64,000 nt of DNA, from positions 67-64,066 of the forward strand of contig JACQXN010000006.1 in assembly GCA_016208745.1 (NCBI GenBank), written 5' to 3'. This stretch comes from Candidatus Portnoybacteria bacterium. GTDB taxonomy: Bacteria; Patescibacteriota; Minisyncoccia; Portnoybacterales; GWB1-42-6. Positions 19,298-57,191 of the stretch are shown here, in pieces. The notes below the pieces were generated by a model. That model made no database searches, was not told the DNA's origin, and saw only the letters and a program-made list of their open reading frames with translations. Made by a program: the position numbers and the translations under genes. Each line of letters opens with the position of its first letter. Within the stretch, counting starts at the first letter, position 1.

Positions 19298-19420
19298 GCG
19301 CACTTACGGGGACTACCTACTTTCTCTGGAAAACCAGATATCATCGGCCTTGGCATATTTCACTTCTGTGTTCGGAATGGGAACAGGTGGGACAATGCCA
19401 GTATAATCCCCATAAGTACG
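19298..19420 (-). rRNA. rrf: 5S ribosomal RNA
   Basis: CCACCTGTTCCCATTCCGAACACAGAAGTGAAA core; the 5' and 3' ends pair with each other. Confidence 0.88.
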
Positions 19421-19560: not shown

Positions 19561-20520
19561 GGCAAAAATTTAGACAGATGGATGATTTATTAGTACTCCT
19601 TGGCTTAACGCATTACTGCGCTTACACCTAGAGCCTATCAACCTTGTAATCTTCAAGGAATCTACGATACCTAATCTTGGGGTCTGCTTCGCGCTTATAT
19701 GCTTTCAGCGCTTATCAGATCCATACATAGCTACTCAGCAGTGCACCGGGCGGTGCAGCTGATACACCAGAGGTATGTTCTTCTCGGTCCTCTCGTACTA
19801 GAGAAGACTCCCCTCAAGTATCCACGCCTGCAGCAGATAGAGACCAACCTGTCTCACGACGGTTTGAACCCAGCTCACGTACCTCTTTAATTGGCGAACA
19901 GCCAAACCCTTGGGGCCTTCTTCAGTCCCAGGATGAGATGAGCCGACATCGAGGTGCCGAACAGTATCGTCGATATGGACTCTTGGATACTACCAGCCTG
20001 TTATCCCCGGAGTAGCTTTTAGCCGATGATCTTCCACCTTCCTATGAAGTATGGTCGGTTCACTAAGTTCCGCTTTCGCGACTGCGCGACATGTCCGTCT
20101 TGCAGTAAAGCCAGCTTATGCCTTTACGCGTCAGGGCCGATTTCCATCCGGCCCAAGCTGACCTTGATAAACGCCTCCGTTACTCTTTTGGAGGCTAGCG
20201 CCCCACTAAAACTGCCCACCAGGCACTGTTCCCGTCCCGTTTTGCGAGACAGGTTAGAACAAAGTTTTTTAAAGATGGGTGTTTCATTGGCGGATCCATG
20301 CAGGCCGAAACCTACACTTCAAATCCTACCCACTACGCTACGCATTAAAAAACAAGGCTCAATACCAAGCTGCAGTAAAGCTTCCGGGGTCTTTTCGTCT
20401 AGCTGCAGGTACCCGGCATCTTTACCGGAATTGCATTTTCACCGAGCTCCTCGTTGAGACAGTCCCCAAGTCGTTACGCTTTTCATGCGCGTCAGAACTT
20501 ACCTGACAAGGAATTTCGCT

Positions 20521-21373
20521 CAAATGTGTTATTCTGCCCTCGACTTTAGTCAGGGCAACTCTATATATCGCTATATAGTTCGGACTATATCTTCTCCGTG
20601 ATTTGCGGAGTTTGGCGTATAGTCTCTGGGGATTCTAAAAACTTGGATGGTTTGCACCGGTTAATTTTTTCCATTAAACCGGCGATCTTTTTCATTCCTC
20701 TGTACTTAAAATGTCTTTGAGAAATCATCATTTTGACGATCTTCGCGAACACTTTAAAATCTTTTTCTTTGGCGGTTTTGAGATTATTCTTTTCAAAAAA
20801 TGGAATAATCTTTGCATTCAAATCCGAAATGGATCTAACGCAATAACGAAAAAGGGGTTCTTTATGGTTGTCGTGGCGGCGGTTGATAAATATTTTTCCG
20901 CACTCAAAGAAATTTTGAATCATTTTTAATGAATTCAAACTTTTTTCTCCTTGAGTAACTACAAACTCCGGAAAAACTTGCCAACCAAATTTTGTTCTCG
21001 CGTTACGAATCATCGTAACGGAAAAACATCCTTCACCGTCAACATAACCAACTATCCATCCGATTGTTTTTAGCCTTTCCTGCGGATTGTCTGGCGCCTC
21101 TTCCTTAAAGGGCACACTGGTAGATTTTTTACTTGGCATAATGTTTCATTTGTTATGGTAACATTATACCATAGTATCTCCAGATACTCCAGATTTTCCC
21201 GTCCCGCAAGCCTTCCCTTATTGTGAAATTGTCACAATAACGTGACTTACGGATTCCCGAAATTGCATTTTTCCTTCGCAACCATACGGCTGCGGGATTG
21301 CGATTTGTTTCCAATCGCTTCGATCTTGGACAAATCGGGAACATATAGCCAAATTTTACTAAAGCAGTTTCCT
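20521..21373 (-). mobile_element. group I intron in the 23S gene at the position equivalent to E. coli U1931 (5' exon ends ..AAAGT, the intron ends in G, the 3' exon begins AGCGAAATTCC)
   Basis: Exon junction deduced by comparison with the conserved helix 69-71 sequence; the intron carries a homing-endonuclease ORF. Confidence 0.75.
20585..21139 (-). CDS. LAGLIDADG homing endonuclease (single-motif type) encoded in the intron
   Basis: GWIVGYVDGEGCF motif in a 184-aa ORF that lies within the 23S gene. Confidence 0.85.
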   Translation of the reverse strand: MPSKKSTSVPFKEEAPDNPQERLKTIGWIVGYVDGEGCFSVTMIRNARTKFGWQVFPEFVVTQGEKSLNSLKMIQNFFECGKIFINRRHDNHKEPLFRYCVRSISDLNAKIIPFFEKNNLKTAKEKDFKVFAKIVKMMISQRHFKYRGMKKIAGLMEKINRCKPSKFLESPETIRQTPQITEKI

Positions 21374-23583
21374 ACTTTAACACGATTATAGTTATCGCGG
21401 ACGTTCACTGGCGCTTAGCACAGTGAGCCTAGACGCACATCACCACATTCAGGCTAAACTTATAGTTTTACTCTTTATTGATTGGCGAAATTGCCGTCAT
21501 ATTAAAGAGCTTGCTTAATCTTTGAAGATTAAAAAGAAAAACTACAAATCTGCACTGAACGCAGTAAAGTGCGCCCAGACCCCCATGTTTAACGTTCCAG
21601 CACTGGTCAAGCGTCAGCCCCTATACTTCCTCTTGCGAGTTTGCAGGGACCTGTGTTTTTGGTAAACAGTCGCTTGGGGTCTTTAGCTGCGGCCCAATCG
21701 CATCGCGCTATGCACGACGCATAAATTTAAAATGTAAAAATCGAAAGTCAAAATTTAAGTGTCGCTTTGTGACAAATTATAATAAATTCGCCGCAGGCGA
21801 ATACCAAAATTTTACATTTTGCCCGCCCCGCTTCGCTTGGCGAGGCCGGGGATATTTTAATTTTGCATTTAGCGTCACACGCAGTGTGATGCGATCAGGC
21901 AGGTCATATTGCGAACTTACGACACGTTGTTTTGCCGAGTTCCTTAACGAGGACTCACTCGTTCGCCTGAGGCTACTCGCCTCGCCCACCTGTGTCGGTT
22001 TTCAGTACGGTTCCCTTATTTTTGACTCTAGAAGTTTTTCTTGGCAGCTCCTTCGTCCGAATTACCCCGCCTTCTAAGCCCGTCACCAAGATCTATAGAA
22101 CAAACTATTTTTTACCTCAAAAAAATAATGTCCTATAATCTGGTCATGAGCATAGAGGGCGGGGCTTTTCTCAATTTCGGAAATTATTCTGCCGGATTTG
22201 CCTGACAGACATTCCAAAACCAAGAATGATAATCCAATAAATCACTCAGACTTTTAAACTGCGTCACTCCGTTGAAAAAATAAGGAAGTGCAGGAATATT
22301 AACCTGCTGTCCATTATCCGAGCATCTCTGCTCTAGACTTAGGACCGACTAACCCTTGGATGATAATCATTGCCAAGGAAACCTTAGGCTTGCGGCGGTC
22401 CGGTCTTTCACCGGACTTGTGGTTACTTATTCCAACATTCTCTCTTCCTAACGCTCCAGCGAACCTCACGATTCGCCTTCACAGCAGTTAGAAATGCTCC
22501 CCTACCGCCTCGCGCTCCGCACGAAGAAATCCTAAATTAAAAATTCTAAATCCGAAACAAATTCCAAATTAAAATTTCCAAATCATAAAACGAAAATTTA
22601 ATTTAATTCTTGAATTTTGATCATTTGAATTTGTTTAGAGTTTGGGATTTAGTGCTAGAATTTCCTTGTGCGAAGCACAAGACCCATATCTTCGGTACTA
22701 AGCTTAGCCCCGATAAATCTTCGGTGCAAAATCTCTAGATTAGTGAGCTGTTACGCACTCTTTAAAGGATGGCTGCCTCTAAGCCAACCTCCTAACTGTT
22801 AGAGAAACTTCACCGCCTTGTTGACACTTAGCTTAGTTTAGGGACCTTAGATGATGATCTGGGCTGTTTCCCTTTTGACTATGGAGCTTCGCCCCCACAG
22901 TCTGACTCTGATGATAAAAATCTCGGCATTCGGAGTTTGATTAGGTCCGGTAGGAAAAATCCATCCAAACCCATTCAGTGCTCTACCTCCAAGACACAAA
23001 CATCAGGCTAGCCCAAAAGCTATTTCGGGGAGAACCAGCTATTACCAAGCTCGATTAGCTTTTCACTTCTTACCACAGCTCATCCCCCAGTGTTGCACGG
23101 CTGGTGGGTTCGGGCCTCCCCCTGATTTTACTCAGGGTTCACCCTGGCCATGGCAAGCTCGCCTTGGCTTCGGGTCTTAAATGTGCTGCATATTCACAGA
23201 TCGCAAATAGCTCGTCAGGCGCAGCCCGATAAGCGATTCGCAATAAGTGAAAGTCGCGCTATTAACACTTGGTTTCCCTATATCTCCGTCCCGAAGGACT
23301 TAGAAAAAGCAACACATATAAACTCGTTGGATCGTTCTGCAAAAAGCACACGGTCACCCACACGCATCTCGCTACTCGAGATGCTAAATTAAAAGTTTAA
23401 AGTTAAAATTTAAAAGTTATTGAGTGAAAAATTTTGAGACAAAATTTTTCACGAATTCCTAAATTTTTAACTTTTCATTTTTCATTTTTAACTTAGCGCA
23501 TCTTGCCCAGCAAGATGCGCGCAGGCTCCCATTCATTGTAAGTATATGGTTTCAGGGACTATTTCATCGCCCTCATCGGGCTG

Positions 23584-23622
<39 letters not shown>

Positions 23623-23918
23623 GATATTGAGTATTTAGCCTTGGCACAATAGTCGTGCCGGATTCCGACAAGGTAGTCTTGGCCTCGCCGTACTTAAGAA
23701 CAATAACTAGGAGCATAAAACCGTTTTCGCTTACGGGGCTATTACCCTCTTTGGCACCGGTTTTCCATCCGGTTTCTGCTAACGAAGCCTTATAATTTGA
23801 TCTCCCTCTGGAACCTAATCAACAAGTCCAAGAAGTTTACCCTGAGCTTGTCGAAGGGCTCCAGAACGTTATTACCTTACAACACCCATACACCGCACAT
23901 CGCTGAGCTCTGTGCGTG

Positions 23919-24056
23919 AAATGTCTAATTTCTAATTATTCTAATTTCTAAGCAAATCCCAAATTTTTAAATATCCAATAATAAAAAGTAGTATTTTGTC
24001 ATTGGAAATTGGAAATTCATTAGATTAATTAGACTAATTAGGTCAATTAGAAATTT
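23919..24056. repeat. 138-bp AT-rich palindromic element (arms AATTTCTAATT...ACCTAATT / AATTAGGT..AATTAGAAATT) inserted at a 23S domain I helix tip
   Basis: Same family as 24154-24247, 50463-50597 and 51001-51138; complementary flanking rRNA sequences close the helix. Confidence 0.6.
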
Positions 24057-24153
24057 CGCACGAAACGCAGTGAAGTGCGGTAGATGGGTTTAGGCTCTTC
24101 CCTTTTCGCTCGCCGCTACTGGGGGAATGAGCGGTCTCGCAATCGCTCGCCGC

Positions 24154-24247
24154 AATGTCTAATTTCTAATCCCTAATTTATCTAATCCAGTCCCGCAGGG
24201 CGGGACATTTTTAGAATAATTAGGTTAATTACGAATAATTAGAAATT
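24154..24247. repeat. 94-bp AT-rich palindromic element of the same family inside 23S, with a central gtcccgc/gcgggac hairpin
   Basis: Arm sequences shared with the other family members. The flanking rRNA motif GCGGCGAGCGA is duplicated across the element, consistent with a closing helix. Confidence 0.6.
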
Positions 24248-24327
24248 GCGCGTATCGAACGATAGTGAGATCGCCTTATTTTCTTTTCCTCCGCTTACTA
24301 GAATGTTTTACTTCAGCGGGTTAACTC

Positions 24328-24618
24328 CTGCTCAGATTTTTGGAGGGGATCATATTTATAGACGATCCCCCTAATAAATTAACATGCCCTAAGGCCTGTA
24401 TCATTGTATGTGACCAGGGCCACAAATGTCTCGCCAACGATAGCCAATGCGGTCGAAAGAACTTCGGGTTGTTCTTTTTTTTCCCATTGATTAATCTCTT
24501 CTCTTAATCGTACCATTGCACCCAAAGCATTCTCTGGCGGAACTCTTTCCACAACAAATTCCATTACCATACTATGTCCTCCTTTTTCAGAATTATTTAC
24601 TCCAAAAATCTGAGCAGG
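24328..24618 (-). other. intervening sequence of about 290 nt near the 23S 5' end, closed by a 19-bp inverted repeat (CCTGCTCAGATTTTTGGAG / CTCCAAAAATCTGAGCAGG) and containing a protein-coding ORF
   Basis: The insertion lies between conserved 23S segments (..GGGGAAACCC.. and ..GAAGTAAAACAT..), and the stem is a perfect 19 bp. Confidence 0.65.
24379..24570 (-). CDS. 63-aa hypothetical protein encoded inside the 23S intervening sequence (MVMEFVVERVPPENALGAMVRLREEINQWEKKEQPEVLSTALAIVGETFVALVTYNDTGLRAC)
   Basis: AAAGGAGG lies 7 nt upstream of the ATG. The longer track ORF 24379..24669 would read through conserved rRNA. Confidence 0.5.
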   Translation of the reverse strand: MVMEFVVERVPPENALGAMVRLREEINQWEKKEQPEVLSTALAIVGETFVALVTYNDTGLRAC

Positions 24619-24948
24619 TATACCGATTTTATCGGTATGGGTTTCCCCATTCGGATATCCCCGGATCAAAGCTTGCTAGACAGCTCCCCGAGGCTTAACG
24701 CAGTCACGCCACGTCCTTCATCGCCTCAATATCCCTAGGCATCCACCATACACCCTTAGCCATCTGTCTAAATTTTTGCCCCCAAGCCAAAGCTTGGGAT
24801 TGCCACGCTAAGCGCGGCCTAGATGACTAATAATTAAGTAACCATTAACGTTATCTGATTCTCTAATTTCACCCCGTCCCACAATACATTTGTGGCGGGG
24901 TTCTTTTATACCTGCTATATTCAATTTTCAAGTTGCTATCATTTTTCA

Positions 24949-28065: not shown

Positions 28066-28170
28066 AACTTCTTAGTTATTCCCTCCTCCCCTCAAATGAG
28101 GGGAGGATTAAGGTGGGGTGATAAAATTGATTTTCAACACCTCCTCTTTAATTCTCCTCCTCAACTGAGG
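28066..28170 (-). promoter_or_regulatory. two similar stem-loops whose stems are CCUCC / GGAGG (CCTCCCCTC-aaat-GAGGGGAGG and CTCCTCCTC-aact-GAGGAGGAG) in the leader of 27633..28058
   Basis: GC-rich hairpins in an AT-rich genome; the stems consist of Shine-Dalgarno and anti-Shine-Dalgarno-like sequence. Confidence 0.4.
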
Positions 28171-28226
28171 AGGAGAGGATAAATAAAAAAAATTTATTAA
28201 CTCGAAACAATTAATAGAGTAGTAAT

Positions 28227-28539: not shown

Positions 28540-28583
28540 AAATTTGCCAGTTAGTATGCTATAGCATACTAACTGGCAAATTT
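28540..28583. promoter_or_regulatory. 44-bp perfect palindrome with core AGTATGCTATAGCATACT, downstream of 28614..29225
   Basis: Perfect 22-bp arms; the core is shared with 29194-29226. Confidence 0.5.
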
Positions 28584-28613
28584 TTCTTTCTAGTCTTTCG
28601 TTCTAAGTAAAGC

Positions 28614-29225
28614 CTATAAATCAAAAATGTTTTTTAAATACAAATCATTATCTATCTTCTCTATTACGCCATAAAGTATATGGGGTTTTATTTGATAAAA
28701 TTCCGCGATAAAGTTAATTTCGTCTTCGCATTCAAACGGATGCACAAAGACACTTTTCTGTAATTCGTGGAATCCTATCTTTTTTAATCTGAACCTGAAA
28801 GCATCCCGCGCCATTTTTTGTTCCTCCGGAATGTCAAAAATTACAATCCTCCATTTTCTATCCCAAGCCTGCTTCTTAATTCTCATATCTTCTAATTGGT
28901 ATTTTAACGCCTTTGTTTTTCCATTGTCAGCCAAAACCATTGAAATAACGCCATCTCTATCCGTTTTTATATTAACTAACTTTGACCGATATAGTTCTCT
29001 TATATCTTGTTTTATTCTATCTTCTTTTATTTGTTTCCACCCTTTTCCAATTGCTTTTACTATATGAAATTGCCGTTCCGGGGAACGGTTAAGACAAAGA
29101 GCAGCGCCGCCCATCAATATAAGTAAAATTTTCTTTTTGTTGGTATTTAAATCACTCACTTTATTTATTTTTATTATACGCCATATCAATTTTGGAGTAA
29201 ATATGCTATAGCATAGTAACTCCAA
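28614..29225 (-). CDS. protein with a C-terminal Cas2/VapD-like domain (IVIFDIPEEQKMARDAFRFRLKKIGFHELQKSVFV) and an N-terminal possible winged-helix domain; PaaX-like architecture; flanked by related palindromes
   Basis: The C-terminal pattern resembles the Cas2/VapD fold signature (hh.YDh...RR.kh.k.L..yG.R.Q.SVF). Palindromes sit at the start and 30 nt after the stop. Confidence 0.4.
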   Translation of the reverse strand: MELLCYSIFTPKLIWRIIKINKVSDLNTNKKKILLILMGGAALCLNRSPERQFHIVKAIGKGWKQIKEDRIKQDIRELYRSKLVNIKTDRDGVISMVLADNGKTKALKYQLEDMRIKKQAWDRKWRIVIFDIPEEQKMARDAFRFRLKKIGFHELQKSVFVHPFECEDEINFIAEFYQIKPHILYGVIEKIDNDLYLKNIFDL

Positions 29226-29226
29226 A
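29194..29226. promoter_or_regulatory. palindrome ttggagtaaATATGCTATAGCATAgtaactccaa overlapping the start of 28614..29225; candidate operator
   Basis: Core TATGCTATAGCATA is shared with 28540-28583. Confidence 0.45.
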
Positions 29227-30010: not shown

Positions 30011-31069
30011 TTACAGCGCCACAATCTCTTCCCAAGGCAACCCCTCTTTGCCAAAATGTCCATAAGCAGCGGTTTGGCGGTAAATCGGCCGGCGGAGATT
30101 CAATCGTTCAATAATCGCCTGCGGCCGGAAATCAAAATTCTTATTCACTATTTCATCAATGCTCTCCCCTTTTTCATTAATCGCCTCAACCATTAAAGGT
30201 TCAACGCGGCCGATGGCATAAGCCACTGAAACTAAACATTTTTTAGCTAGGCCATTAGCCACAATATTTTTGGCGGCAAAACGAGCCATATAAGCGGCTG
30301 ATCGATCAACTTTTGTCGGATCTTTCCCAGAAAAAGCGCCGCCGCCATGCGGAATTAAACCGCCATAAGTATCAACCATAATCTTTCTGCCGGTTAAGCC
30401 GGTGTCAGCCTCAAACCCGCCCTGCACGAATTTGCCGGTTGGATTAACTAATATTTCGGCGCCATTGTAATCTTCTTCGTCAAAAGCCGATTTAATTACT
30501 TTTTCAATAATTTCTCTTTTTATATCATCTTGCGAAACCGAATCGCTATGCTGACAGCTAACTAGAATTTTTTCTGTGCCGTGGCTGTTAATAGTTACCT
30601 GCGATTTACCATCTGGAAAAAGCCAGGTGGCTTGGCCACTTCTCCTTAATTTTTCTAAACCTTGCGCCAGTTTATGCGCCATAACAACTCCTTTGGGCAA
30701 AAATTGAGAAGTTTCATCTGTCGCATAACCATACATAATGCCTTGATCTCCGGCGCCACCCGTATCAACTCCCTGCGCAATGTCGGGCGATTGCTGGACA
30801 ACATTAGTAATAACTTTTAACTCGTTCTGATGGCCGATATCGCGATAAACCTGTCGGCCAAGATTGGCAAAATCAACTTGCGCGTTAGTTGTCAGCTCGC
30901 CGCAAATAACTAATATCCCGTGTCCGCCAAAACTTTCAATGGCAACTCTGCTTTTTGGGTCTTGCCTTAAACATTCGTCTAAAACAGCATCCGAAATCTG
31001 ATCGCAGATTTTATCCGGATGCCCCGAGGTAACGCTTTCAACTGTATACATCTTTGTGCTGTATGTCAT
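30011..31069 (-). CDS. metK: S-adenosylmethionine synthetase
   Basis: GHPDKICDQISDA, GAGDQGIMYGYA and GGGAFSGKDPTKVDRS motifs; the true start may be the internal MYTVESV. Confidence 0.95.
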   Translation of the reverse strand: MTYSTKMYTVESVTSGHPDKICDQISDAVLDECLRQDPKSRVAIESFGGHGILVICGELTTNAQVDFANLGRQVYRDIGHQNELKVITNVVQQSPDIAQGVDTGGAGDQGIMYGYATDETSQFLPKGVVMAHKLAQGLEKLRRSGQATWLFPDGKSQVTINSHGTEKILVSCQHSDSVSQDDIKREIIEKVIKSAFDEEDYNGAEILVNPTGKFVQGGFEADTGLTGRKIMVDTYGGLIPHGGGAFSGKDPTKVDRSAAYMARFAAKNIVANGLAKKCLVSVAYAIGRVEPLMVEAINEKGESIDEIVNKNFDFRPQAIIERLNLRRPIYRQTAAYGHFGKEGLPWEEIVAL

Positions 31070-31154
31070 ACTGGGTAGTAGAAATTTGACTATGATTTAA
31101 ATTCGGAACGCCGAATTTAAATCATAAGGTCTTTTTAGTTTTCTACAATTTAAA

Positions 31155-31292
31155 AAATCTTTCCACGCGGAAAGATTTCTCTAAAATTATCTTTCCCCCG
31201 TGGGGCTAGAGTTGGCACCTCTCCTTCAATTATTTGAAGAAGGTTGTCGGCAGGTCATAGGGCTAGTTCCCTCGCTACACTCTGTAATAATT
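31155..31292 (-). promoter_or_regulatory. SAM-I (S-box) riboswitch with an intrinsic terminator, in the metK leader
   Basis: Minus-strand sequence ..TTATTACAGAG..GCGAGGGAACTAGCCCTATGACCTGCCGACAACC..GGTGCCAACTCTAGCC..AGATAA matches the S-box consensus. It is followed by the hairpin aaatctttcc-gcgt-ggaaagattt and a T-run. Confidence 0.7.
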
Positions 31293-31299
31293 ATTTTAT

Positions 31300-56594: not shown

Positions 56595-57002
56595 TCAAAT
56601 AATCCAGTAATTTATTAACAACCATAAAACAAGCAGGTGGAATGAGCTGTCCACGACCGCATAAACCAAACTGGTAAAACTTATATCAAATTCCCGCAAT
56701 ACATCTCTGGAATTAAAGGCAGACTCGAATGTCCGGCCCCTTATAAGCTTCAACCATAAACTTGCCAGCAATACTCTGTCTATTATCCAATGCGAATGTA
56801 AGACTACTAGAAAAATAAAAAGGTCGCAAACCGCCCACAAAGAAAAATAAACCGCGACTGCATAAATAGTAGAATGCAGATAACAAATTCCAATCCCTCT
56901 CCATCCCGGCTCCATCTTGTTCAAAGCCATCTTTTTGGTCTGGAACCAATAATCTCCGGCAAAATGACCAAACAACGCCCAGATAAATAGCTCAGCGGCC
57001 AT
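56595..57002 (-). CDS. DUF3307-like membrane protein
   Basis: HFAGDYWFQT motif and four TM helices. Confidence 0.55.
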   Translation of the reverse strand: MAAELFIWALFGHFAGDYWFQTKKMALNKMEPGWRGIGICYLHSTIYAVAVYFSLWAVCDLFIFLVVLHSHWIIDRVLLASLWLKLIRGRTFESAFNSRDVLREFDISFTSLVYAVVDSSFHLLVLWLLINYWII

Positions 57003-57107: not shown

Positions 57108-57147
57108 AATTGTGCCAATACGTAGCGATCACTACGTATTGGCACAA
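57108..57147. promoter_or_regulatory. 40-bp palindrome attgtgccaatacgtag-cgatcac-tacgtattggcacaat upstream of 56595..57002
   Basis: 17-bp arms. Confidence 0.4.
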
Positions 57148-57191
57148 TGTATCATTGCTACCACGATCGAACAAAAATGATACAAATATAA

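Follow-up and report, generated by a model that had tools for sequence, protein, structure and literature searches.

A small gene in a Candidatus Portnoybacteria genome (GenBank assembly GCA_016208745.1, contig JACQXN010000006.1) raises the question of why a protein with a Cas2-like domain should be encoded between two long palindromes built on the same core. We analyzed this gene in a window of 64,000 nucleotides of the contig, to which the positions given below refer, and compared it with the loci of its relatives. Judged by sequence profiles and a predicted structure, its product is a "mini-PaaX", that is, a winged helix joined to a Cas2-like core without the PaaX_C effector domain. It is probably a minimal dimeric autorepressor of the PaaX type, with one operator in its promoter and a second operator after the gene.

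Palindromes, gene and promoter

The two palindromes flank a single open reading frame (ORF) on the minus strand, and their centers are 647 bp apart. The elements of the locus are the following:

28540-28583: downstream operator-like site, a perfect 44-bp palindrome (AAATTTGCCAGTTAGTATGCTA followed by TAGCATACTAACTGGCAAATTT) with the center GCTATAGC, 30 nt after the stop codon
29190-29227: upstream operator-like site, an imperfect 38-bp palindrome (TTTTGGAGTAAATATGCTA followed by TAGCATAGTAACTCCAAAA) with the same center GCTATAGC, arms of 19+19 nt with 17 of 19 paired, overlapping the -35 box
28614..29159, minus strand: mini-PaaX coding sequence of 181 aa, GTG start at 29159, TAG stop at 28614-28616
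29160..29225, minus strand: spurious 22-codon 5' extension from a TTG, representing non-coding promoter and operator DNA
29173..29178, minus strand: predicted -10 box TATAAT, 13 nt upstream of the GTG and 31 nt from the palindrome center
29196..29201, minus strand: predicted -35 box TTTACT, within the gene-proximal arm of the upstream palindrome

The downstream palindrome consists of two 22-nt arms with a spacer of 0 and 100% complementarity. It is the longest palindrome in the window, and simple arithmetic gives a chance expectation of ~4e-9 for a perfect palindrome with 22-nt arms in 64 kb. The original prediction, made from the sequence of the window, had described exactly this palindrome, and the 30-nt gap to the stop codon that it gave is correct. 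The same prediction placed a related 33-bp palindrome at the other end of the gene. A related palindrome is present there, and the 14-bp core TATGCTATAGCATA is common to both sites (28555-28568 and 29202-29215), but its actual size is 38 bp and its symmetry is imperfect. The upstream and downstream sites are 82% identical across 34 nt. With two mismatches allowed, TATGCTATAGCATA has only two matches in the window, both in the palindromes, and no further copy of the gene's own site was found elsewhere in these 64 kb. The palindromes are thus not a generic repeat, a possibility that had been raised at the outset: the window holds two copies, and homologous genes possess private pairs of their own.

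The ORF at 28614..29225 on the minus strand encodes WRIVIFDIPEEQKMARDAFRFRLKKIGFHELQKSVFV, and from its listed TTG start at 29225 it would yield 203 aa. Against 5.8 billion proteins, 472 relatives were retrieved, and almost all have 170-200 aa. One of them, P0001 from a Candidatus Portnoybacteria genome, has 181 aa and is 99% identical to the window protein, and the homolog alignments start at VSDLNT... Because of the homolog lengths of ~180 aa, their N-termini and the length of P0001, we place the true start at the GTG at 29159, and the 203-aa protein assumed earlier is over-extended. With this start, the upstream palindrome overlaps the promoter rather than the start codon, contrary to the earlier description; it is located 31-68 nt before the GTG, over the predicted -35 box. 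The predicted promoter, TTTACT-N17-TATAAT (29201-29173), matches the consensus at 10 of 12 positions in a consensus scan and lies inside the discarded ORF extension. Since the -10 box is only 13 nt before the GTG, the mRNA leader would be very short, and the transcript nearly leaderless.

Domain structure and relatives of the protein

The protein can be divided into two parts, with the following features:

28875..29159, minus strand: N-terminal winged-helix domain, residues ~1-95, assigned from the AlphaFold secondary structure and weak YodB/QsrR profile matches
within this domain: predicted recognition helix at residues ~44-58 and beta wing at residues ~61-88, taken from the AlphaFold model
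28671..28871, minus strand: Cas2-like (PaaX_M) domain, residues ~97-163, with WDxKW, Asp109 in FDIPE, and QKSVF

The C-terminal part matches the Pfam family PF20803 PaaX_M ("PaaX protein central Cas2-like domain") with E=2.3e-21 and 76 bits against a cut-off of 24, whereas the models for Cas2 reach 23-28 bits and match only the first half of the domain. Among the latter, TIGR01573 (cas2) scores 26.6 bits, above its cut-off of 24.5, Pfam PF09827 (Cas2) scores 22.9, just under the gathering score of 23.8, and 13 Cas2 hidden Markov models of PADLOC match residues 103-150. The PaaX equivalog model TIGR02277 gives 31.4 bits against a cut-off of 264.55, and positions 51-144 of its 279 are covered. 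For the N-terminal part, the corresponding PaaX model of Pfam has no match at E<=1, and the HxlR-type winged-helix proteins YodB and QsrR match weakly at residues 11-94 (E ~0.5). There is no Pfam match to PaaX_C, and in the AlphaFold model the chain stops ~15 residues past the last Cas2-like strand. That model, built from 120 sequences (predicted local distance difference test score, pLDDT, 89.7), has N-terminal helices and a beta wing, followed in residues 103-166 by the ferredoxin-like order beta-alpha-beta-beta-alpha-beta. Foldseek matched the Cas2-like domain to Cas2 structures, which were the top matches (8ia4, 6jhz, 3exc and 5zyf among the Cas2 matches), and also to VapD, Escherichia coli PaaX (8a39) and Rv0674.

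These results agree with the Cas2/VapD-like C-terminal segment and the possible N-terminal winged helix recognized in the original prediction. The PaaX-like architecture that it proposed is supported for PaaX_M and, by the predicted structure, for a winged helix, but the architecture is truncated, since PaaX_C is absent; in the profile searches PaaX_M and Cas2 matched and PaaX_C did not.

In the alignment of the 120 sequences, residues G80, W99, D100, W103, D109, P111, R118, Q134, S136 and C144 are invariant, and no His or Tyr is. The alignment with PaaX of E. coli K-12 by hhalign pairs WDRKW of the window protein with WDGKW. In this profile alignment E. coli PaaX lacks the Asp of FDI and the QKS motif, both of which are invariant in the mini-PaaX family; in its motifs, as aligned, mini-PaaX is closer to Cas2 than PaaX itself. 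The family is large (a family profile retrieves 5,578 clusters at 50% identity with E<=0.001 and 3,029 with E<=1e-10, almost all of ~180-200 aa) and is named inconsistently in databases as "Cas2", "PaaX family", or "hypothetical". P0001 bears the name "CRISPR-associated endonuclease Cas2" in one public source, assigned by the NCBI pipeline.

This name, the TIGR01573 score above its cut-off, the 13 PADLOC models and the Foldseek matches, VapD included, would be expected for a genuine CRISPR-associated Cas2 or a VapD-type toxin, with which mini-PaaX shares the ferredoxin-like fold, the Asp at the end of beta-1 and the Q.SVF motif. However, the Cas2-like domain of mini-PaaX comes after a winged-helix domain of ~95 aa, the protein carries the WDxKW hallmark of PaaX, PaaX_M outscores all the Cas2 models, the Pfam Cas2 model stays under its gathering score, and private palindromes flank the gene. 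The genomic setting also differs from that of the Cas2 and VapD systems. No CRISPR-like array is present in the 64 kb (direct repeats of 20 nt or more, spaced by up to 120 nt, were not found), and no cas gene, cas1 included, was found among ten neighboring ORFs scanned against Pfam, in line with what had been noted from the sequence. The gene is isolated, without an adjoining antitoxin-like partner. A true Cas2 or VapD identity is therefore highly improbable, and the database label "CRISPR Cas2" is wrong for this protein.

Paired sites throughout the family

For comparison, we used 80 loci encoding relatives of the window protein, all from Patescibacteria genomes. Strict palindromes, defined by arms of at least 11 nt with at most 2 mismatches and located up to 220 nt upstream or up to 200 nt downstream of the gene, were found upstream in 39 of 77 loci and downstream in 46 of 77, whereas the density of such palindromes elsewhere in the loci gives an expectation of 0.014 per flank. 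The centers of the sites are ACGATCGT (27 times), GCGATCGC (17 times), GCTATCGC (8 times), and GCTATAGC (8 times), with the consensus C(G/T)AT(C/A)G; the center of the window sites falls in this set. When the consensus hexamer was required together with at least 9 of 12 symmetric neighboring pairs, 51 of 77 loci had an upstream site, 47 of 77 had a downstream site, and 38 of 74 had both, against a background of 0.004 per flank.

The arms of the sites are wholly different between loci, and the two copies at one locus resemble each other: mean identity is 31/40 within a locus versus 16/40 between loci. In a test that ignores palindromicity, the likeness of upstream and downstream copies exceeds that of 99% of cross-locus pairs in 58 of 74 loci and that of 95% in 65 of 74. 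Symmetry is at least 0.88 over positions ±3 to ±16 and falls to background by about ±21, so that a typical site comprises 36-40 bp. Its grammar includes (i) the conserved center, (ii) pyrimidine-rich positions ±5 to 7, (iii) A/T-rich positions ±8 to 12, and (iv) AGCA, GTCA or GCCA, partly conserved, around positions -16 to -12. At 42 positions the upstream and downstream copies differ while each copy is still internally symmetric, a count made on sites that had been preselected as palindromes. The 356 kb around the 80 genes contain few orphan sites or third copies.

In 21 metagenome loci, center-motif sites flank the gene wherever the flank is covered, with weaker symmetry (6-12 of 12 pairs). 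The metagenome protein scan yielded no relative closer than 53%, and a scan for AGTNNNTATGCTATAGCATANNNACT gave 0 matches; the organism of the window is absent from that collection.

The upstream copies have a promoter geometry of their own. Hexamers similar to the -10 box cluster at +26..+40 from the center, a pattern confined to upstream copies and to the gene's own direction; for the 26 upstream copies with a co-directional upstream neighbor, three 5-nt bins hold 27 matches, versus at most 3 per bin elsewhere. The -10 box of the window gene, 31 nt from the center, falls within this peak. In many loci a -35-like TTGACx or TTTACT is observed at +11..+16. The first in-frame start codon is located 4-14 nt past the -10 box in 12 of 25 loci; therefore, many of these mRNAs would be leaderless or nearly so. 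One orthologous group has an extended -10 box (TGgTATAAT) in place of the gene-proximal arm, and the ATG follows 7 nt later. The upstream site thus overlaps the predicted core promoter elements, which is the classical position of a repressor site. The autoregulation suggested in the original prediction is strengthened by the fixed spacing between center and predicted -10 box across the family and by the location of the window site over the predicted -35 box.

Palindromes of this size could also act as RNA or transcriptional structures, such as intrinsic or bidirectional terminators or mRNA-stabilizing hairpins, that are unrelated to protein binding. Both window sites would form very stable hairpins, the downstream one is flagged as terminator-like on the plus strand (a 20-bp stem followed by TTCTTTCT), and the upstream neighbor is co-directional in 56 of 76 loci, so that the upstream copy could in principle terminate that gene. 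However, the window gene is encoded on the minus strand, where the stem has no T-tract, the T-run being found on the plus strand only; across the family, a T-run (5 or more T among the 8 nt that come next) follows only 6 of 46 downstream copies. Mismatches read on the sense strand show no bias toward G-T wobble pairs, with 9 GT versus 6 AC in downstream copies and 5 versus 5 in upstream copies. A hairpin loop would require neither the conserved sequence of the center nor the palindromic nature of the center itself, and the two copies match in sequence beyond what structure alone would call for. The upstream copy overlaps the -35 box and hence lies before the predicted transcription start, outside the gene's own transcript, and upstream copies are present with divergent neighbors too (11/20). 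No Rfam family matches at the palindromes. A role as RNA structures is quite unlikely, and the terminator or RNA hairpin was rejected given the rarity of T-tracts and the absence of a wobble bias.

The downstream copies, unlike the upstream ones, are not accompanied by a -10 box at a constant spacing, whichever direction is considered. The distance from the stop codon to their centers is 6-163 nt (median 48), and the window site fits this range. They occur with convergent (14/22) as well as co-directional (31/52) next genes; since the orientation of the neighbor is irrelevant, they belong to the regulator gene rather than to the neighbor. The downstream copy is the more symmetric one in 23 loci and the upstream copy in 11, a marginal trend (p ~0.06) that the window also follows. 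The spacing between the two centers is 605-774 bp in 26 loci.

The same counts bear on the explanation that the downstream palindrome is the operator of the next gene, in this case the DUF167 operon, and that the protein is an ordinary local regulator of its neighbors. The DUF167 gene is co-directional with the mini-PaaX gene, and its predicted promoter (TTGACG-N18-TAGAAT, 28509-28480) starts 31 nt beyond the palindrome. The existence of a third copy in a divergent intergenic region at locus L058 and of an orphan palindrome of the family type in the window, both described below, could be understood in the same way. On the other hand, downstream copies are equally frequent with neighbors of both orientations and lack a fixed distance to a promoter, the neighboring genes are unrelated across loci, and the window palindrome has its center ~52 nt ahead of the DUF167 -35 box and does not overlap it. 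We regard this explanation as unlikely for the window, and as a general role of the downstream copies it was rejected because of their orientation-independent occurrence and the lack of promoter geometry.

Several individual sites depart from the common arrangement. The orphan palindrome ATTGTGCCAATACGTAGCGATCACTACGTATTGGCACAAT at 57109-57148 has 19/20 pairs and the center GCGATCAC; its outer GCCA is the same as in the sites studied here, its inner arms are different, and no mini-PaaX gene adjoins it. Its neighbors are a lysyl-tRNA synthetase-like gene on one side and, on the other, a membrane-protein ORF at 56595-57002 on the minus strand, and it may be the target of a paralog encoded elsewhere in the genome. 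L058 contains three copies of its private palindrome, one of them at 2650-2693, and two of the three are in a 600-nt divergent intergenic region. At L055 (2854-3536) two genes of the family are ~1.5 kb apart; the first is bracketed by its own palindrome, and the second has a different palindrome, downstream only. Both sites of L092, the locus of P0007 (2443-2459 and 3079-3095), start with TTATCCACGCTATAGCG. A perfect DnaA box, TTATCCACA, directly follows the downstream palindrome in L006 (3581) and L034 (3602), and a form with one mismatch does so in L029. The idea of a link with DnaA was dropped, as the adjacency is limited to a few loci and is not general across the family.

Probable autorepression, possible DNA processing and known systems

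The fold and domain family, the site pairs with their statistics, the promoter geometry and the setting of the gene, chromosomal and non-mobile, are what the analysis shows, and from these features we infer the following mechanism. A symmetric mini-PaaX dimer would bind both of the matching ~40-bp palindromes that bracket its gene; its winged helices would read the outer arms specific to the locus, and either the wing or the conserved core would lie over the C(G/T)AT(C/A)G center. Binding upstream would cover the -35 box of the gene's own promoter and cause autorepression, and the more perfect site past the stop codon would be an auxiliary operator. Two roles can be suggested for this second site: (i) bridging of the sites, ~650 bp apart, could loop out the whole gene, or (ii) the bound downstream site could form a roadblock that insulates the single-gene unit from neighboring transcription. 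Both are plausible, and we make no choice between them.

Three observations favor recognition of double-stranded DNA by a symmetric protein over a hairpin function, as far as comparison of the sites can tell. First, the symmetric span is constant at ~36-40 bp, matching the 39-bp operator of E. coli PaaX. Second, members of the orthologous group L103-L119 keep the outer arms TGTTCTCCTTAA / TTAAGGAGAACA and the center GCTATCGC and have an asymmetric inner spacer; this asymmetric spacer is nonetheless conserved between the upstream and downstream copies. Third, paralogs in one genome that are 62-75% identical have sites with unrelated arms and the same center, and the differences between the paralogs are concentrated at residues ~31-60, the helix-turn-helix region, the Cas2-like domain being nearly unchanged. 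L020 and L024, a paralog pair with 74% identity, are an example of such differing arms. Mutual information between protein columns and DNA positions ranked D47, Q51 and D52, which belong to the predicted recognition helix, at the top for the outer positions ±13, ±15 and ±16, a ranking that is confounded by phylogeny and multiple testing and is given no weight here. As a separate observation on the L103-L119 group, the downstream site of L113 (~2607-2647) has its central segment inverted relative to its relatives, with GCGATAGC in place of GCTATCGC and flanking bases, and its outer arms are unchanged.

A number of points weigh against autorepression. The near-perfect symmetry extends to positions that are not conserved between loci, which goes beyond most operators and hints at a cruciform or self-templating constraint. 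The protein is linked to the sites by co-location, ~20 bp per half-site is a lot for a dimer of 181-aa chains, and an operator after the stop codon is unusual. The protein lacks a recognizable effector domain, and a regulator that targets only itself makes little sense; the 64-kb window contains no other target except the orphan palindrome at 57109-57148 with its different arms. The Cas2 signature of Asp and QxS, lost in E. coli PaaX, is kept, which leaves room for a catalytic role. Finally, a Rayleigh test with periods of 10-11.3 bp gave no signal of helical phasing between the two sites, although phasing is not expected to matter at this distance.

Some of these points, together with others, could be accommodated by a self-contained DNA-processing or selfish cassette, in which the Cas2-like domain would be an active nuclease or strand-transferase that acts at the center of the palindromes, perhaps in cruciform or hairpin form, to cut or resolve them. 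In Cas2 dimers the Asp residues are placed at the two-fold axis, and the conserved center of the sites would fall on that axis of the dimer, at the position of the Cas2-type Asp. Asp109, Arg118, Gln134 and Ser136 are invariant as in Cas2, and the Asp and the Q-S motif are missing from E. coli PaaX. The similar hairpin-capable palindromes bracket the gene whatever the orientation of the neighbor, and their arms vary by locus with internal symmetry maintained, including at the 42 mirrored differences between upstream and downstream copies. Moreover, the genes next to the window gene are conserved in no homologous locus.

A cassette of this kind is nevertheless improbable, since the genes occupy stable chromosomal positions. 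Proteins identical to P0050 and P0007 have a constant context in all contigs read, 24 for each, from many samples; one adjoins dnaG-rpoD, and the other is located between a tRNA synthetase gene and recO. Paralogs within one genome are 45-75% identical and have different sites, which argues against recent copying, and 2.9 million viral contigs yielded only 1 relative. The family has no invariant His or Tyr and hence neither an HUH nor a catalytic-Tyr motif; Ser136 is invariant, and a serine-recombinase motif was not specifically searched for. The upstream copy forms part of the promoter, with a constant spacing, and the asymmetric spacer of the L103-L119 group would disrupt a hairpin. An active mobile element was likewise set aside as unlikely in view of the fixed contexts, the diverged paralogs and the near-absence from viral contigs.

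A variant of the autorepressor would be a protein that, beyond repression, also nicks, cuts or resolves its own flanking palindromes, possibly as cruciforms. We consider this decidedly improbable; the integration of the site into the promoter and the stable contexts make catalysis at the palindrome center unlikely. If it were true, the gene and its private palindromes would represent a self-recognizing DNA-processing cassette and a living intermediate between the Cas2/VapD nucleases and the PaaX repressors.

The autorepressor has counterparts among known systems. PaaX of E. coli blocks RNA polymerase at its own promoter and so represses it, through the 39-bp operator TGATTC-N27-GAATCA (PMC9493321). 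Mini-PaaX is similar to PaaX (8a39; TIGR02277) in the order of a (here predicted) winged helix and a PaaX_M domain with WDxKW and, by the size of the candidate sites, in having a 36-44 bp element that overlaps the predicted promoter. In contrast to PaaX, which has 316 aa, mini-PaaX has 181 aa, lacks PaaX_C (the phenylacetyl-CoA effector domain), and keeps the Cas2 Asp and QxS; its site is usually palindromic throughout, with a conserved center, and is repeated after the stop codon. No paa catabolic genes were found among the ten scanned neighbors of the window gene, and the homologs are located by dnaG-rpoD or tRNA synthetase/recO rather than near paa genes.

Two other systems show a gene bracketed by similar sites. 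The CI gene of phage lambda is bracketed by the matching operator sets OR and OL, looping between these sets tunes autoregulation, and different phages have mutually exclusive ("immunity") specificities. A similar arrangement, also comparable to LacI O1/O2 and GalR OE/OI, is seen in the mini-PaaX genes with their matching sites 605-774 bp apart and in the paralogs of one genome with mutually distinct sites. Mini-PaaX differs from CI in its unrelated fold, in having one site per side rather than three, and in being chromosomal rather than phage-borne, and the loop would be our suggestion here. TnpA of IS200/IS605 and the REP-associated tyrosine transposases (RAYT) have a ferredoxin/RRM-like fold and flanking hairpins, and the bracketing of a ~0.55-kb gene by similar hairpin-forming palindromes recalls them. 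Unlike these transposases and their REP elements, mini-PaaX has no HUH or Tyr motif, does not form multi-copy identical elements, retains a stable context, and has a palindrome in its promoter.

The family itself is already in databases, and its gene-bracketing pair of private sites, found family-wide, appears to be new. In a literature collection with few subscription journals, we found no published account of PaaX together with Cas2, and a search combining the candidate phyla radiation (CPR) or Parcubacteria with palindromes and transcriptional regulators gave nothing relevant. Thousands of Patescibacteria proteins are affected by the present annotation, some of them named Cas2 or PaaX and being neither; such labels can yield false inferences of CRISPR or phenylacetate catabolism in organisms that rarely have either. 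Since the flanks of each gene reveal its candidate operator, the family offers many natural and mutually distinct candidate pairs of regulator and operator, from organisms that cannot be grown in pure culture, and these may serve as orthogonal parts. A conserved putative operator placed directly after the stop codon, in a unit of one gene, would be an unusual arrangement for autoregulation. The combination of the PaaX-specific WDxKW with intact Cas2 motifs bears on the route by which a nuclease fold became the dimerization core of a repressor.

The neighborhood of the window gene has no synteny with the 80 homologous loci. The ten neighboring ORFs correspond in Pfam to VTT/DedA, a zincin-like peptidase, DUF5671, DUF167, GNAT, MetK and an ABC transporter, or have no match. 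Two similar perfect 24-nt hairpins, TCCTCCCCTCAAATGAGGGGAGGA at 28084-28107 and TCTCCTCCTCAACTGAGGAGGAGA at 28153-28176, both built on GGAGG/CCTCC, are located in the 168 nt that separate the DUF167 gene from the next one. By exact look-up, the DUF167 protein of the window occurs in one other contig only (L081, Logan contig SRR12113398_7642, 1.4 kb). This contig begins ~123 nt upstream of the DUF167 gene, which, going by the distance and not by an alignment, is about the position of the downstream palindrome; its start looks like an assembly break at the palindrome. On the other side of the mini-PaaX gene, an S-adenosylmethionine (SAM) riboswitch (31184-31293, minus strand) is located upstream of metK (30011-31069), and two hairpin-capable palindromes, at 31153-31180 and 31091-31126, lie between the riboswitch and the metK start. 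The 23S rRNA match at 19570-24769 spreads the full 2,925-position model over 5,200 nt, so the 23S rRNA gene must be interrupted by ~2.3 kb of insertions; the 5S rRNA is at 19304-19414.

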